From the IMG/VR virus record IMGVR_UViG_2703718785_000025: a DNA stretch of 10,444 nt; one strand, written 5' to 3'. Shown here piece after piece: positions 1,308-6,667 of the stretch; position 1 is the stretch's first letter; every line of letters starts with the position of its first letter. Origin of the DNA: a virus (taxonomy: Duplodnaviria > Heunggongvirae > Uroviricota > Caudoviricetes). The position numbers were made by a program, and so were the translations under genes. Under the pieces are notes generated by a model. That model made no database searches and was not told the DNA's origin. It worked only from the letters and a program-made list of their open reading frames with translations.

Positions 1308-2749
1308 TCAAAAATCAGCCTGACTCGGGAGCAGTTTTTGCCAGATGGCTGAAACGTATTTCGCCTGGTAACGTGCATCGTTCAGAGCGTTATGGCGTTC
1401 ACCTTCGAATGGAATAGTCGTTCTTGCGTCGAAATCCATCACCAGTCCCAGAGCAACCATCGTTCTTACATCGCGATCATTGGTGTAACGCCACGGGCAG
1501 GGGATCCCCTGCCGTTCATATGAACGGCGTAAAATCACGTTGTCGAAAGTTGCACCGTTACCCCAGACCTGAACAAAAAATTCACCGGAGTTTTCGTCGA
1601 TAAATTCCCGTAATTGCAGCAGTGCATCATCTAACGGGATTTCATCGGTAAGAATGGCGGATTGCGCTTCGCGTGACTGTTTCAGCCACCACTTAATGGT
1701 GTCCCGATCAATGACTCCGCCAGCAGTTTCCAGATCGATAGTTTTGCTGAATTCTGGCCCCATCTCTCCGGTTTGCGGATCGAAAAATATTGCACCTATT
1801 GAGATAATCGGGGCATCAGGATTTTTTCCCATGGTTTCAAGGTCGATCATCAGATGAATCCCCGCTCTGCTGGTGGATGTGAGATTATGATGACCGTTCG
1901 CCTTAATTAAGGGATCTGACGCCTCGCCAGTTTCACTATCGCTGGCATGATGCTGATTGCCGCCAGTGTTCTCCTTGTGCTGATGCGCAGTGCCTTCCAT
2001 TTCCTCCGGATCATTTTCCTGAACTTCAGGCTGATTCTCTTCATCGAATATTTCCTGGTATGTTGCGTCACTTATCACCGCACCACAATCAGGGCAGCTA
2101 CCGCCGCCGGTCTGACCGCAGGCGGTGCAGGCTTTTTCCGGCTCCTGTTTCGTTTCTGGCTCGTTTTGTTGCGCATTTGGGCTGTTTTGTTCCGTTTTCT
2201 GGTCGTTCTGTTCCGATTCTTGCTGGTTCTGGTTCACAGAATCGCAGGTTTCAATCCCCTTCACCCATTTCGGATCATTCGGATCGCTAATCCCTTCAAC
2301 AAATTCACCACGTGATGCAGCAAGCAATTTATCGGCGTCAGGCTGGCTGATATTGGCTGCCTGCATAATTTTGTTTACTTCGTCAGCGGTAACTTTTACC
2401 GGCTCCGGTTGTACGGAATCTTCAGCGGTATCCACATTTTGCGGTAAGTCCGTGTATGTTCCGTTTTTGCGGGCAAGATATTCTTCTTTCGTGATTTCAG
2501 TAGCCCCGGCAGCCAGTGCCTTATCCAGACCAGAAAGTTTGTTTGCGCGACCGTATTTTTCGCCATCCTTGTCGGTGAAGAGGAAGTAGAACGGCCCCTC
2601 ACGCTCTACAGATGGTTCGACTTCCACTTTGCATTCGGTTTTTTCGTTGTCCGGAATTGCCGTTTCCACTGCATCAGTTTCTGGTACTGGCGACGAGAGA
2701 GTATCAGTTGCGCTCTGATTTGTTCCTTCATCTTCAAACACGCCCTTTG
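1308..2749 (-). CDS. Prophage exonuclease, C-terminal portion: Q/N/E-rich linker, CxxC-x9-CxxC zinc-ribbon motif and DEDDh (DnaQ-like) 3'-5' exonuclease domain; 5' end runs into the assembly gap
   Basis: Frame is open from the stop at 1308..1310 up to the first N at 2750. Exo motifs are visible in the translation: DLETMG (Exo I), WGNGATFDNVIL (Exo II), HNALNDARYQ (Exo III, H-x4-D). CTACGQTGGGSCPDCG gives the zinc-ribbon motif. The M at 2741 in the ORF track is a GTG and not the true start. Confidence 0.8.
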
Positions 2750-2850
2750 NNNNNNNNNNNNNNNNNNNNNNNNNNNNNNNNNNNNNNNNNNNNNNNNNNN
2801 NNNNNNNNNNNNNNNNNNNNNNNNNNNNNNNNNNNNNNNNNNNNNNNNNN
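2750..2850. other. Assembly or scaffold gap (101 N), true length unknown
   Basis: Uninterrupted run of n characters; coding frames on both sides are open into it. Confidence 0.97.
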
Positions 2851-3547
2851 TGATTTTTCCTGTTGAATTTTCAGTGTGCTGTTGATTGGCTCTGGCGCGG
2901 GCGAGATCAACAACAGACGTGTATTTTCCGGTTTCCTTGCGTTCACCTTCGCGACGTTTTTTCCAGATGCGCATCTCTGCCTGAATTTCGGGCCATTTGG
3001 CACCTGGCTTACATTTATGCTTAACCCACCCGATGGCATGCAGCTTAAGCTCCGGATACATGGCGTTAACTTCTGGCATTTTCATCAACGCTTCAACGAT
3101 ATGTCCGTCGAATGTTGCCATGTCTTCCTGCAACAGTTCCTGCGCGCTAATCACCATATCAACGGTGATGTTTTCACATGTGTCGAACTTAACCATGACA
3201 GCGTTCTGTACTTCAGGGGCCAGCTTGTCAAAAGTGACGTTTATCGGATCTGATTCAGTCTCAACCGGGACAAAGGAAGCAGACTCCTCATCCCAGCGGT
3301 TTTCCTGCATATATTCAGCATCCCAGGAATCGAGGGCAGGGCGGGGAATACCGGGTTTATCCTCGCAAACAAGAAATTTATAAGCGCAGTCCTGAGCAGC
3401 CGGATAATGTTCCAGGAATTGCCAGTGAAATTTTGCGCGGGCGCGACGTTCATCACCGGCTTCAATGGCAGTGGCTACAGCGACTGCACCTTCTTCCTTT
3501 ATTGCCTGTTCGTCCGGAATGGCGGCGCAAATAAAGACTTTACTCAT
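2851..3547 (-). CDS. Prophage exonuclease, N-terminal portion (probably the same gene as 1308..2749; proteins of this kind are often annotated exodeoxyribonuclease VIII-like)
   Basis: ATG at 3545..3547 with GAGGT about 8 nt upstream. 232 codons (MSKVFICAAIPDEQ...NSTGKI) are open to the gap edge. The apparent frame shift on the far side of the gap is expected if the gap length is arbitrary. Confidence 0.7.
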
Positions 3548-3826: not shown

Positions 3827-4015
3827 TTATTGACGTTCTCCGAAAATACCAAGTTCAAGAAGAGCAATTCGGGAAAGTATGGAATTATCATTGAGCAGAT
3901 AAGGCTCATATTTCCTCATATTAATGGCATCTTCAGTAAACTCCCGGTTACTGAGCAGAACACCAATATCAAAACAACCTTCAGACGTATTAACGTTTGG
4001 TAATAACGTTTCCAT
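3827..4015 (-). CDS. Hypothetical small protein (62 aa)
   Basis: Internal ATG at 4013..4015 of the 97-aa track ORF, with GAGGA 7 nt upstream. Product METLLPNVNTSEGCFDIGVLL...GIFGERQ. No family recognised. Confidence 0.45.
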   Translation of the reverse strand: METLLPNVNTSEGCFDIGVLLSNREFTEDAINMRKYEPYLLNDNSILSRIALLELGIFGERQ

Positions 4016-4032
4016 TATCGCGTCCTCAACAA

Positions 4033-4180
4033 TGAATTTTGTGATGCGGTGCCTGGTGCCTCCAGGTGACGTTAACCAGTTAACAATTAACGCCGGATAC
4101 AGAGAATCCACCCATAACACTGTTTTTGGTTTTAACTGTTCCGCGTGCGCTGAGCCGCATTCACCGCATCACAAAATTCA
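4033..4180. repeat. Perfect 19-bp inverted repeat flanking 110 bp
   Basis: TGAATTTTGTGATGCGGTG at 4033..4051 and its exact reverse complement CACCGCATCACAAAATTCA at 4162..4180. The left arm lies just upstream of the RBS of the 3827..4015 gene. The enclosed segment contains GTTAACCAGTTAAC (4071..4084). Confidence 0.7.
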
Positions 4181-4583
4181 CTTTAAAAAGGGCGGCAGAG
4201 CAGCCACGGAGTAAAACTGATACCGCCAAACGTCACCAGAAAATTGATAACAGAGGGCGTTGCAGCGGGGTTGTCACTTAAGCGTATGGTCAACCTGACA
4301 ACCCGGTGTCCTCAACTGGGGAAGGAATAACCCCGCCATACTTACCGCCGCGCCATTTCGCGGATTGCCACAACCGGAAGCGCACGGTCGACGAAAATTT
4401 AACGACAGGCTATCTATGAACCAGCTACCTCGCCGTGCGCTTTCGCGTTATGGTCTGACTTTTCAGGGAAATATCCTTTCAGTAAACTGTCAGTGCCGGA
4501 TGCTCACCCGTGTCCGGCGCACGCACTCCACCTCACCCGTGGAGAACTCCTTAATTACCAACCTTAGCTTCGTTGGTTAGCTA

Positions 4584-4802
4584 TTAACGCGGGTATGTAA
4601 TCATTCTGGCAATGCTTAATGCCGCTGCTTTTTCCAGATTGGTGATATCCTGCTCCAGAGCGGACAGATTTTCAGCCTGCTTAGCCCTGGCTTCATTGGC
4701 CCATTTCAGGTCCTGCGCTGCCTTAATTTTCTGGTGCATCCACTCATAAAGTTCATCATCGGTATAGTCTGGCGCGATGATGACGGGTTCTCGTTTCTGC
4801 AT
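4584..4802 (-). CDS. Hypothetical small protein (72 aa)
   Basis: ATG at 4800..4802 preceded by a strong AAGGAG 5 nt upstream. Product MQKREPVIIAPDYTDDELYEWMHQKIKAAQDLKWANEARAKQAENLSALEQDITNLEKAAA... No family recognised. Confidence 0.55.
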   Translation of the reverse strand: MQKREPVIIAPDYTDDELYEWMHQKIKAAQDLKWANEARAKQAENLSALEQDITNLEKAAALSIARMITYPR

Positions 4803-4894
4803 GTCGGCTCCTTGTGGTTAGCGCTGCCTGCTTTTAACCACGTCAGGCGAGGTGGTATCCTCTGAGGGGTCTGTTACTCGAGAGGAAATTGGTT

Positions 4895-5095
4895 ATGAAT
4901 ACAATCAAGTTTTCTTGCCCAGAATGTGGTGGCGAAGTCTTTGACACATCCTTTAAACCGCATGGCTCTGACAGTTTCGCGGGAGCCATCTGCAAAAATT
5001 GTGGTCACCTTGTAACTGAAGATGAGTCCTCGCAGTTTGATGACGAAATCGTTGACAATATCTTCGGTGCACTCACCAGAGACTTTCTGAAGTAA
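4895..5095 (+). CDS. Small zinc-ribbon protein (66 aa), CPEC...CKNC
   Basis: ATG at 4895 with GAGG in AGAGGAAA 7 to 8 nt upstream; the track start at 4889 is TTG. Two CxxC pairs (CPECGG and CKNCGH) spaced 21 residues apart, with an acidic C-terminal tail. Confidence 0.5.
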   Translation: MNTIKFSCPECGGEVFDTSFKPHGSDSFAGAICKNCGHLVTEDESSQFDDEIVDNIFGALTRDFLK

Positions 5096-5473
5096 AGGCG
5101 CATACCGCTTAGTTACCGCTCTGATAATTCTTACCTGTCCGGCAATGGCGCTGATATCAATATAAAGCGCCATCGCTGTTTCTTTGCTGATCCCTGGATG
5201 CCTTCCATTCTGATGTTTGACTTCGCCCACTGAGAAATCCTCTGTTTCCCCTTAACGCCGGGGTAGCGGAACAAAAAACCTGCTGCATAGTTAAACGTAA
5301 TCCCCGCCGTCATGTTCATACGCCTCAGGCTGGCTACTTAACCCCTGACCACTGCCGGGTAACTCGAAGTATTGCCCTGCGTTCTGTGGGGCGGGGTGGG
5401 TTTATGGATACAATTTACAAATTAAAATTTAACTGGTCAACATGTTTATTATTAAATTTGTAATTGCGGGCTG

Positions 5474-5502
5474 TTGCATCAGTCCCAAAATGGGACTACT
5501 AT
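5474..5502 (+). promoter_or_regulatory. Putative higBA promoter with operator-like inverted repeat
   Basis: -35-like TTGCAT (5474..5479), 17-bp spacer, -10-like TACTAT (5497..5502). The spacer holds a 7-bp inverted repeat AGTCCCA-aaa-TGGGACT (5481..5497). The predicted transcript start is within a few nt of the higB ATG at 5509 (little or no leader, no SD seen). Confidence 0.4.
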
Positions 5503-5508
5503 ACAGTT

Positions 5509-5811
5509 ATGAAGATTATCTCAGTTAAAACACTCAGGGATTTTTGGGCGGAGAATCCTGATGCAGAACAACCGCTAAGGGCATGGGTGGATGAGGCGGC
5601 AAAAGCTGACTGGAAAAGCCCAGCAGACATTAAGGCACAATACCGAACGGCCAGTATATTGAAAAACCGGCGCGTGGTATTCAACATAAAAGGTAATCAT
5701 TACCGTTTAATTGTTGCAATTGCGTATCAGCGAGGATGGGTATTTGTTAAATTCATCGGAAACCACAAGGAATACGATGCTATTGATGCTGATACCATCG
5801 AACTGGAGTAA
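5509..5811 (+). CDS. higB: Type II toxin, HigB family (RelE/ParE superfamily)
   Basis: 100-aa product MKIISVKTLRDFWAENP...FNIKGNHYRLIVAIAY...GNHKEYDAID, resembling E. coli HigB as recalled from memory. Toxin is upstream of antitoxin, the reversed order typical of HigBA. The track start at 5464 adds 15 residues with no support. Confidence 0.85.
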   Translation: MKIISVKTLRDFWAENPDAEQPLRAWVDEAAKADWKSPADIKAQYRTASILKNRRVVFNIKGNHYRLIVAIAYQRGWVFVKFIGNHKEYDAIDADTIELE

Positions 5812-5813
5812 GC

Positions 5814-6173
5814 ATGAACATCAAACCTATTCGTACAGAGCAAGATTATGAAGCCGCGTTGCGTGCTGTTGAACCCATGTTCGACAATGAGCCCGAAATT
5901 GACACGCCTGAGGGGGATTTTTTTGAGGTGATGTGTTTGCTAATAGAGGAATATGAAAAAAAACATTATCCCATTGAGCCACCATCCCCAATTGAAGCTA
6001 TAAGATTTCGCATGGAACAGCAGGGGCTGACTGTGAAAGATTTGGAACCCGCAATTGGGAAAAAAAATCGGGTTTATGAGGTGTTGAATGGTACCAGAAG
6101 CCTTACGTTACCAATGATTCGCCGTCTTCATAATCAATTTGGTATCCCCCTGGAAAGCCTGGTTGGATTATAA
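5814..6173 (+). CDS. higA: Type II antitoxin, HigA family (XRE-type HTH at the C-terminus)
   Basis: 119 aa; ATG is 2 nt after the higB stop with GGAG 5 nt upstream. C-terminal HTH region LTVKDLEPAIGKKNRVYEVLNGTRSLTLPMIRRLHNQFGIP resembles HigA. Confidence 0.85.
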   Translation: MNIKPIRTEQDYEAALRAVEPMFDNEPEIDTPEGDFFEVMCLLIEEYEKKHYPIEPPSPIEAIRFRMEQQGLTVKDLEPAIGKKNRVYEVLNGTRSLTLPMIRRLHNQFGIPLESLVGL

Positions 6174-6189
6174 AATCTGCTAGTCATTT

Positions 6190-6238
6190 GCCTGATGCTC
6201 GTTCCAGAAAAGGAATGCATCAGGCAGTTTTGTTTTTC
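6190..6238 (+). terminator. Putative rho-independent terminator after higA
   Basis: Stem GCCTGATGC (6190..6198) pairs with GCATCAGGC (6217..6225), followed by GTTTTGTTTTT. The stem overlaps the stop codon of the convergent repressor gene. Confidence 0.5.
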
Positions 6239-6612
6239 TGCCGCAGTAACTCTTCAAGTTTCCGTTTATAGAAATCGCGTTTTTGCTCCATATCACGAAT
6301 GATCTGCTCTGCGTCGCTTTGAGGTAACTCATCTAAAAGCGATATGATTTTTCGTTGTTGTTCTGTAAGTTGCGGTTGGTTGTCATTACTGGATACAGCC
6401 ATTTTATCGCCGAGAGTTTCTTCTTCCATAAAGAACCAATGGACGGGATGTTGTGAGAGCTCTGCTAATTTTTCCAGTTTATCCATTCTTGGCATCACGC
6501 CTTTCAACCAACCTTGCACGGATTGGGGTTTTACACCAAGACGTCTTCCCAGCTCTGACTGGTTTATATTCAATTCCTGCAACACCTGCTGAAGGCGTTT
6601 TACAAAGATCAT
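6220..6612 (-). CDS. Prophage repressor, HTH XRE/cI-type, RacR-like, with no S24 peptidase domain
   Basis: ATG at 6610..6612 with GAGGGG upstream; the track start at 6618 is GTG. 130 aa: MIFVKRLQQVLQELNINQSELGRRLGVKPQSVQGWLKG..., with a C-terminal charged, coiled-coil-like tail. Divergent from the Cro-like gene. Confidence 0.8.
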   Translation of the reverse strand: MIFVKRLQQVLQELNINQSELGRRLGVKPQSVQGWLKGVMPRMDKLEKLAELSQHPVHWFFMEEETLGDKMAVSSNDNQPQLTEQQRKIISLLDELPQSDAEQIIRDMEQKRDFYKRKLEELLRQKNKTA

Positions 6613-6667
6613 CACCACCCCTCGTAAACTAGTTCCGCGATCCTACAGAAAAAATTGATAAGTGGCA

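Follow-up and report, generated by a model that had tools for sequence, protein, structure and literature searches.

A predicted pseudoknotted RNA domain conserved upstream of DicF in the dicBF operon of a Qin-type prophage

The dicBF operon spacer

We analyzed a 403-nt segment (positions 4181-4583) in a Caudoviricetes sequence of 10,444 nt, IMG/VR record IMGVR_UViG_2703718785_000025, the whole of which is called the window here. The window is an enterobacterial lambdoid prophage with its rightward replication operon on the plus strand. The minus strand of the segment is a real non-coding RNA, the long untranslated spacer between ydfC and dicB in the dicBF operon of a Qin-type prophage, and the object is already known as the classical dicF locus. 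Directly upstream of DicF, comparative analysis points to a pseudoknotted domain of 116 nt, which makes up two thirds of the long-known 190-nt DicF RNA and is its previously unexplained part. Its definition is what the present work adds to a segment that is explained as a textbook locus. We put the probability of this explanation, as far as it covers the dicBF spacer, DicF, and the structured domain, at roughly 85%; the cis role that we infer for the domain is much less certain.

Read from right to left, the minus strand, on which all features below lie unless stated otherwise, carries a DicA-like repressor (6220-6618), a promoter-like site of the dicB operon (5440-5412), small open reading frames (ORFs), a ydfC-like coding sequence, the spacer, dicB, and ydfD, followed beyond ydfD by an exonuclease, an excisionase-like gene, and an integrase. 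The ydfC-like sequence (4584-4802, 72 aa) was taken from the ORF list and matches phrog_1744 (E=2e-39); the gene is annotated as ydfC in a near-identical locus (L002) and in K-12, and its 3' untranslated region is the segment under study. The next operon gene, dicB (3827-4015, 62 aa), matches the Pfam DicB family (PF05358, E=6.8e-37). This order, with ydfC (4802-4584), DicF, and dicB (4015-3827) all on the same strand, agrees with annotated loci.

A covariance-model scan of the whole window against Rfam gave a single match at the gathering threshold, DicF (RF00039), at 4241-4190 on the minus strand, with 75 bits against a gathering score of 48 (E=1.6e-15) and with positions 1-52 of the 52-position model covered. 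When the K-12 dicF annotation is mapped onto the window, the 53-nt form spans 4242-4190. It carries an intrinsic terminator hairpin, with a terminator-like site called at 4207-4192 and a U-tract at 4189-4185. Compared with K-12, there is one substitution, within the hairpin, and the 5' seed is identical. The ydfC-dicF-dicB stretch as a whole is 98% identical to E. coli K-12 MG1655, in which dicF is annotated at the matching place. Because of the DicF match, this identity, and the shared gene order, the segment corresponds to the long untranslated region containing dicF that has been described for the dicBF operon (PMC5069750). Evidence against this identification is essentially lacking. The 403-nt segment is present in 4328 of 5426 complete E. 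coli genomes, in up to eight copies per genome, and most E. coli copies are more than 90% identical to one another.

A previous sequence-only reading had proposed a structured non-coding RNA or leader for this segment. The proposal is supported by the DicF match, by compensatory changes that a comparative alignment reveals in the domain directly upstream of DicF, and by the documented K-12 transcripts, a 190-nt and a 53-nt species detected by Northern blot from the 98%-identical locus (PMC10448788). That reading did not identify the classical dicF region, assigned no strand to the RNA, and missed both the match to DicF and the hairpin with the longest stem (4452-4427 with 4392-4367). The five stems that it named are all present and perfectly complementary: GGGTTGTCA at 4268 with TGACAACCC at 4296, GGGG at 4318 with CCCC at 4331, GCCGGA at 4495 with TCCGGC at 4513, CTCCAC at 4526 with GTGGAG at 4539, and ACCAAC at 4557 with GTTGGT at 4572. 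Two of these fall in the covarying fold described below, the first as helix P4a and the second as P3. The segment was also called hairpin-dense, and the stems do exist, but the folding energy is no better than chance: the z-score for 4100-4600 is -1.7, with 8 of 100 shuffles folding equally well, and that for the 125-nt domain is -0.1. Since hairpin density is not significant alone, the evidence must come from comparison. A higher GC content than in the flanks was borne out against the left flank (0.529 versus 0.417) but not clearly against the right (0.494); the whole window has 0.479.

The absence of a convincing ORF was likewise confirmed. The longest is a 71-aa frame with a TTG start on the plus strand (4365-4580); a frame of similar size is kept in just 43 of 71 variants and broken in the other 28, and a coding role for it was rejected for this lack of conservation. 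Small minus-strand ORFs are disrupted by a 1-nt insertion or deletion relative to K-12 and by variation in the length of the P3 hairpin. Two mini-ORFs, AUG-GCG-CGG-CGG-UAA and one beginning AUGGCGGGG, were rejected as well, their start codon or frame being lost in phage P1, Erwinia, Trabulsiella, and K-12. No frameshifted pseudogene accounts for the region, as judged from the ORF list and the frames of the variants. ARAGORN finds no tRNA or tmRNA gene in the window or in six related loci, and Rfam 15 has no match of any kind in 4242-4583 up to E=10.

Processing and fold of the DicF precursor

The largest hairpin of the spacer, hairpin B (4367-4452), was found by an inverted repeat search and consists of a ~20-bp stem, 4452-4427 with 4392-4367, and a variable apical loop. 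RNAalifold shows 58 to 60 of 60 distinct variants paired at each stem position, although the apical loop has been replaced several times, and the version in Rac-SA53 carries an A-U to G-C compensatory change. When transcript positions are counted from the promoter of K-12 (TTGACC-17 nt-TAATCT) and transferred to the window, the RNase III cut published for position 813/814 falls at ~4373-4379, in the 3' arm, and hairpin B is the probable RNase III substrate. The lower part of this arm, GUUGUGG, doubles as the 5' strand of P1, the closing helix of the domain. Because that strand is shared, hairpin B and helix P1 would be mutually exclusive until RNase III cuts or helix P1 displaces the arm.

In K-12, RNase III cleavage of the operon transcript yields a 190-nt DicF and RNase E cleavage the 53-nt form; both species end at the Rho-independent terminator (PMC10448788; PMC5069750). 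The 190-nt form accumulates when RNase E is inactivated (PMC10448788), and a 72-nt form arises from read-through transcripts via a second RNase III cut (PMC5069750); DicF and its 190-nt species were described by Faubladier et al. (1990), as cited in PMC10448788 and PMC5069750. Mapping of the K-12 annotation to 4242-4190 places the RNase E site that makes the DicF 5' end in a linker at 4243-4258, and fold prediction puts the cut, at 4243/4242, in the loop of a 7-bp hairpin. Five unpaired nucleotides, the 116-nt domain, a 17-nt linker, and the 53 nt of DicF add up to 191 nt, so that the known 190-nt DicF corresponds to the upstream domain plus DicF. This anatomy agrees with the literature at every landmark. 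By analogy with the published 98%-identical K-12 locus, a polycistronic transcript from the window would start at the repressor-controlled promoter (the promoter-like site at 5440-5412) and run through the small ORFs and ydfC into the spacer, where RNase III would cut hairpin B at ~4373-4379; partial termination at the DicF terminator (4189-4185) would yield the 190-nt RNA, from which RNase E, cutting the linker at 4243/4242, would release the 53-nt DicF.

The spacer between DicF and dicB is bracketed by a perfect 19-bp long-range stem, 4180-4162 with 4051-4033 (4033-4180), which was found as a 100% complementary inverted repeat and ends shortly before dicB begins. This stem is probably where RNase III makes its second cut and so gives the 72-nt DicF, since the 3' end of that form (4241-71, or ~4170) falls in the 5' arm. 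A sub-threshold Rfam match to STnc100 (RF02076), a prophage small RNA, covers 3983-4192 with 37.7 bits against a gathering score of 47 (E=3e-6); the resemblance concerns this neighboring spacer, downstream of the segment, and not the 116-nt domain.

The domain itself (4259-4374) was delimited by a comparative fold, derived from an alignment of 33 representatives, and by a covariance model built from that alignment. The closing helix P1 pairs 4374-4367 with 4266-4259. Inside it lie the hairpin P2 (4363-4359 with 4352-4348), the short helix P2a (4346-4344 with 4307-4305), the variable hairpin P3 (4335-4331 with 4321-4316), and the long hairpin P4, in which an internal loop accompanies P4a (4304-4296 with 4276-4268) and P4b (4295-4293 with 4283-4281). 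A pseudoknot joins GUAUGG in the junction J2/3 (4341-4336) to CCAUAC in the P4 loop (4289-4284). When 125 nt are folded in isolation, the minimum-free-energy structure is the comparative fold. The covariance model scores 150.8 bits at 4382-4248, and with its filters off it finds no second copy in the window, the rightward operon included.

Base changes across the family support this fold. In the MAFFT alignment of 33 sequences, 11 pairs change on both sides, compared with 3.8±1.4 in shuffled controls (none of 500 reaches 11) and 1-4 when the structure is slid along the alignment. Among 71 distinct sequences aligned with the covariance model the figure is 13 pairs (3.8±1.3 shuffled), and among 80, with divergent Pantoea-type members included, it is 25 of 39 pairs, compared with 8.6±2.1 shuffled (0/500) and 6-12 slid; alignments made with the model are biased toward its structure, which weighs against these last two figures. 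Two of the pseudoknot pairs read UA71/AU3/CG3/UG2 and AU74/CG6 over the 80 sequences. The fold is specific to the minus strand, because G-U pairs are frequent: 96.3% of cells pair on that strand, the operon sense, versus 88.5% on the other. Junction and loop nucleotides are strongly conserved, and the peripheral hairpin P3 varies freely. Compensatory changes occur in independent lineages (phage P1, Citrobacter, Izhakiella, Erwinia, Serratia, and Pantoea plasmids) whose flanks cannot be aligned. On this comparative evidence, we regard 4374-4259 as an autonomous, multi-helix pseudoknotted domain that is under structural selection.

Two more points count against this assessment. The thermodynamic z-scores given above (-1.7 and -0.1) are unremarkable, and part of the invariance of J2/3 and the P4 loop is due to ascertainment, because the patterns by which members were first retrieved fixed most of the pseudoknot and part of J2/3 and of the P4 loop. 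For this reason we ran four further scans that required a changed 3' strand of the pseudoknot. They recovered far more divergent members, with scores of 33-41 bits; these lie in P1-like plasmids 45-93 kb in length, Pantoea CP009882 among them. In these the pseudoknot reads GACUGG/CCAGUC or UCUGG/CCAGA, P4a is wholly recoded in three lineages (GCGGCCA/UGGCCGC, GCGGACA/UGUCCGC, and AGUAACC/GGUUACU), and the U-A pair of P2a is replaced by C-G.

The domain appears to be new as far as could be found in the searchable literature and in Rfam. No Rfam 15 family matches the copy of phage P1 or the divergent copies, and full-text searches with the core sequences returned no match, although an earlier description of a conserved upstream block in older papers is possible. 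The DicF papers and the review that we examined make no mention of structure upstream of DicF and treat the upstream 137 nt as plain precursor. E. coli K-12, phage P1, and ~80% of the complete genomes of E. coli therefore carry a 116-nt pseudoknot that has no name. Two further observations touch its sequence. A 17-nt direct repeat (4346-4362 versus 4431-4447, 82% identical) links P2 with the 5' arm of hairpin B and suggests a partial duplication. In deletion variants from Shigella and E. coli (loci L136, L060, and L017), the fusion point lies exactly at this CGCGAAA repeat, and helix P1 has lost its 5' strand.

The remaining hairpins of the spacer lie between ydfC and the domain (4455-4583). 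The one farthest upstream, ACCAAC/GUUGGU (4557-4577), directly follows the ydfC stop codon and is specific to the Qin lineage; it shows one compensatory change relative to K-12 (C-G to U-A) and is lost in strain AR_0372. Two adjacent hairpins, CUCCAC/GUGGAG and GCCGGA/UCCGGC (4495-4544), each carry the 10-nt repeat CACGGGUGAG in their loops; their stems are conserved, with no compensatory changes in the variants compared. A further hairpin, CUGAC...GUCAG (4455-4493), was identified from the sequence and a minimum-free-energy fold. Apart from the one change in ACCAAC/GUUGGU, covariation in these hairpins and in hairpin B among Qin-type sequences amounts to one-sided or disruptive changes only. 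The minus-strand TAAGGAG noted previously is present, at 4547-4553 and not at 4540-4546, seven bases away. A GUG 10 nt downstream of this Shine-Dalgarno-like UAAGGAG opens a 10-codon frame, which is probably not a gene; the motif is not conserved and is replaced by other sequence in variant lineages.

Elsewhere in the window, a plus-strand pair of genes for a HigB-like toxin and a helix-turn-helix antitoxin (5464-5811 and 5814-6173) is inserted between the gene of the DicA-like repressor and the promoter-like site of the dicB operon, both of which are on the minus strand. Also on the plus strand, a 68-aa ORF at 4889-5095 (phrog_4852), which has both a CxxC motif and a good Shine-Dalgarno sequence, is antisense to a 118-aa minus-strand ORF at 4874-5230 (phrog_21318); only one of the two is likely to be real. 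Around 2550-3000, the GC content drops to ~0.32 at the junction of two overlapping minus-strand ORFs, one (1308-2741) with an Rv2179c-like 3'-5' exonuclease domain and the other (2606-3547) without a Pfam match. In related loci, one exonuclease gene of 2.4 kb stands in their place, and the junction could be a mosaic junction or a frameshift.

Settings and possible roles of the domain

The segment is a mosaic. Similarity searches detect 4374-4251 also in phages in which Rfam finds no DicF, among them P1, P7, cdtI, Stx2c phages, and a Salmonella phage. Further copies, in Citrobacter, Erwinia, Izhakiella, Trabulsiella, and Serratia symbiotica, came from scanning IMG/VR and one genome per species with sequence patterns. 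Approximately 500 P1-like plasmids carry the domain. It occurs in three settings, namely Qin-type spacers, lambda-like early-left leaders, and the leader of the P1-type ban operon, and lies in the sense strand of repressor-controlled early operons. In P1 and P7 it is found just downstream of the C1-controlled P1ban promoter, beginning ~35 nt past the P1ban start; in cdtI it starts ~275 nt past a PL-like promoter, with no N gene between, in Erwinia ~480 nt past such a promoter, and in the Qin type after three small ORFs. Eight lineages have an intrinsic-terminator hairpin ~11-57 nt after the domain; it is DicF-like in lambdoids and unrelated in phage P1. What comes after the domain in lambdoid lineages is always a linker of variable, seed-like sequence and a hairpin, UGGCGG...CCGCC-U5, of the type known from Hfq-binding RNAs. 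No promoter-like site was found between the terminator hairpin and the downstream genes in Erwinia, and no N-like protein was found in domain carriers by Pfam, PHROGs, or annotation. Two N-encoding phages, phiSTEC1589 and POCJ13, keep a DicF-like RNA and have lost the domain. It is precisely absent from phiSTEC1589, and the Stx-type Shigella phage POCJ13 (L149, ~4452-4478) retains only a 3' remnant, ACGCCUGAGUGACAACCCCGCUGCAAC, directly before the DicF-like hairpin and kil. Rac-SA53 also has a DicF-like RNA locus without the domain. The 75 loci scanned have one copy each, with no second, put-R-like copy.

Several observations were made in these related loci. A plasmid of Pantoea sp. PSNIH1 (L165, CP009882) has two domain copies in one minus-strand operon, the segments of interest being 5788-5657, 5650-5590, 5063-4880, and 3413-3260. 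The same operon holds a tRNA-like sequence without an anticodon arm but with an encoded CCA, and all of these elements lie beside tRNA genes; a third segment of ~180 nt begins with the same CAGUGCUCUCAGCCGUUGUGG and closes on AUCACAGCAAC with a different interior. In another locus (L164), a stretch of ~95 nt (5608-5700) lies ~100 nt downstream of a divergent domain copy; Acinetobacter phages and a Cylindrospermopsis phage have stretches without annotation that match it at 76-85% identity. Rfam and ARAGORN make no call on it, and it may be another structured RNA. In Erwinia, Izhakiella, Trabulsiella, and Serratia symbiotica (L144 4660-4740; also L145, L142, and L134), a Shine-Dalgarno sequence lies within the terminator-like hairpin that follows the domain, together with AUGUUCUACCG, with which a 36-aa ORF begins in Erwinia, so that the 3' arm of the stem overlaps the first codons. 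Copies of the E. coli type turned up in records labeled Actinobacillus phage vB_Apl-pPE4 and Aeromonas phage AP1 as well as in metagenome-assembled genomes assigned to Bacillota, Veillonella, and Collinsella (L006, L137, L138, L141; H136), where they most likely reflect contamination or mis-binning and not true host range.

We tentatively favor a cis role, in which the domain, as part of the leader RNA, would influence transcription elongation or termination at downstream terminators, put- or nut-like in its working and a member of neither family. Acting in cis on elongating RNA polymerase, it would favor read-through of the terminators that separate the early promoter from kil/dicB, the recombination genes, xis/int, or ban, and the transcripts that do terminate would supply the small RNA; in function it would be comparable to an HK022 put or a nut site. 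That it represents a new class of phage leader RNA, which binds the host elongation complex and permits terminator read-through without an N-type protein, is a more specific and rather doubtful claim. The cis role is suggested by the promoter-proximal leader position in phage P1, cdtI, and Erwinia, by the terminator hairpin that follows in eight lineages, with downstream genes that lack an obvious promoter of their own in Erwinia, and by the lack of an N-like protein in carriers, together with the loss of the domain, though not of the DicF-like RNA, from two phages that encode N. If elongation control is confirmed, it would account for how N-less lambdoid phages and the ban operon of P1 pass their leader terminators. 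If it takes the form of antitermination, it would be a second RNA-only system besides HK022 put, structurally unrelated to it and at home in K-12 itself (Qin), phage P1, and many enterobacterial prophages, and would couple small-RNA output to read-through into kil, recombination, and excision genes.

A number of observations weigh against a cis role in elongation. Rac-SA53 has neither N nor the domain, yet the same kind of terminator precedes its kilR-recE genes, and no terminator adjoins either copy in the P1-like plasmid of Pantoea. Lambdoid genomes have one copy, with none in the rightward operon, whereas HK022 has putL and putR, and a 9-mer is the whole of the similarity to HK022 put. The terminated 190-nt and 53-nt species are prominent products in K-12 (PMC10448788). 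Finally, the boxA-like motif just 5' of helix P1 is weak, absent in phage P1, and possibly one strand of a long-range helix; a boxA reading of GUGCUCUC was set aside, the alternative being that it forms the 5' strand of such a helix with AGAGCAU/AGCGCAC past the terminator. The motif reads GUGCGCU in the Qin type and GUGCUCU in the PL-leader types, complementary to AGCGCAC and AGAGCAU, respectively, after the terminator (window 4385-4379 with 4150-4144; L004 ~1489-1495 with ~1688-1694; L144 ~4524-4530 with ~4752-4758). One G-C to U-A compensatory change makes a helix enclosing the domain and the small RNA possible; its duplex energies are no better than those of shuffled controls.

Other roles may be set against the favored one on the same evidence. 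The arrangement in which both mapped processing sites flank the domain would also fit an independent trans-acting structured RNA, freed by RNase III upstream and RNase E downstream like the tRNAs of the same P1-type operons, that binds a host or phage protein or a small molecule. We consider this possible, if somewhat doubtful; such an RNA would be a new structured RNA encoded by phages. In agreement with it, the domain is a discrete module that comes and goes independently of the DicF-like RNA, with conserved junction and loop nucleotides and a freely varying P3. In phage P1 and Pantoea P1-like plasmids, moreover, it sits in one operon with tRNAs and a tRNA-like remnant, and one such operon has two copies, neither next to a terminator. 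Such an RNA has no known partner and would not require a constant promoter-proximal leader position, and its ~137-nt by-product is unreported, the published blots having used DicF probes only (PMC10448788). The composition of the 190-nt RNA (five unpaired nucleotides, domain, linker, and DicF), its build-up when RNase E is inactive (PMC10448788), and the linker and hairpin that always follow the domain in lambdoids would suit a module for maturation or stability of the small-RNA precursor. Helix P1 would then place the 5'-monophosphate made by RNase III beside the linker for a precise RNase E cut, or would keep the 190-nt form as an inactive reserve of DicF. Upstream stem-loops reportedly direct RNase E processing of MicL, another small RNA from a 3' untranslated region. 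We think such a module unlikely, as DicF-like RNAs come from loci without the domain (Rac-SA53, phiSTEC1589, and POCJ13), the Pantoea copies have no such hairpin after them, and a plain hairpin would suffice, which leaves the conserved pseudoknot common to phage P1 unexplained.

The domain also bears the classic marks of a candidate riboswitch, with junctions that are conserved, a pseudoknot, a peripheral stem that varies, and a terminator downstream; a ligand would then set the fold and, with it, the formation of the neighboring terminator. For the 194-nt RNA, a competing structure is predicted in which J2/3 (GGCGCGGCGG) pairs with the terminator's 3' arm, close in energy to the modular fold (-70.2 versus -64.4 kcal/mol before the pseudoknot is added). 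This alternative pairing is predicted only for the Qin type; the terminator lies at spacings of ~11 to 57 nt with no conserved overlap, that of phage P1 is unrelated and unable to pair with J2/3, the Pantoea copies have none, and J2/3 differs in the divergent group, all of which makes a sensor improbable. Least probable is that nothing beyond DicF is functional and that the hairpins upstream of it arose by chance or hitch-hiked with a prophage that has spread recently. Folding energies no better than shuffled, >90% identity among most E. coli copies, and little or no covariation in the hairpins at 4455-4583 would be expected in that case, but for 4259-4452 it is already contradicted by compensatory changes in 4259-4374 across many independent lineages with unalignable flanks and by the retention of hairpin B in 60/60 variants despite its varying loop.

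Comparison with known systems

Among known cis-acting RNAs, putL and putR of HK022 are the nearest functional analogs of the leader that we favor. They are structured, cis-encoded RNAs of ~70 nt with two stems and a triplex that act as processive antiterminators (PMC9378689). Likeness lies in the setting, a structured leader RNA in an early operon of an N-less temperate phage, with terminators downstream and a distribution confined to enterobacterial phages. The structures differ, the domain having 116 nt, four to five helices, and a loop-junction pseudoknot; its action on RNA polymerase is, by analogy, a proposal. HK022 put comes as an L/R pair and the domain as a single copy per lambdoid genome. 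Membership in the put family was rejected, the only shared sequence being the 9-mer GCGCGGCGG (short-word BLAST, E about 1.7), and the covariance model finds nothing in the HK022 loci with filters off. The nut sites of lambda share the early-left leader position and a boxA-like UGCUCU immediately 5' of the domain in several lineages; this motif is absent in phage P1 and altered in the Qin type (GUGCGCUU). We rejected nut membership as well, finding no boxB-type 15-nt hairpin in the domain and no N gene in its carriers.

Individual motifs were also compared. The RfaH ops element (GGCGGTAGNNTG, non-template strand) was rejected: J2/3 reads GGCGGTAAGTATG, with A for G at position 8 and one extra base, and the ops-like motif is lost in divergent members, which read GCAAGACTGG. 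Neither the put-like, -10-like AAGUAU nor the ops-like GGCGGUA in J2/3 is kept in Pantoea-type members, and a CsrA-type GGA motif in J3/4 is not conserved.

Annotators of phage P1 had seen similarity to the dicF region at the same place, entered as a "dicF-like region" (misc_feature 68791-68892, AF234172). The similarity is to the upstream domain and not to DicF, which Rfam does not find in P1; the domain copy runs from ~68739 to 68860 and is followed by an unrelated terminator. DicF is an Hfq-dependent repressor of ftsZ and other mRNAs that blocks cell division, and the sequence in the window belongs to it on all features checked (score, sense location between ydfC and dicB, terminator, and seed). 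The closest known system is therefore DicF and its 190-nt form from the Qin prophage of K-12, the same locus at 98% identity with the same gene order, terminator, and processing landmarks. The difference from the published 190-nt DicF is that its upstream part can now be described as a conserved, predicted pseudoknotted domain that is also found without DicF.

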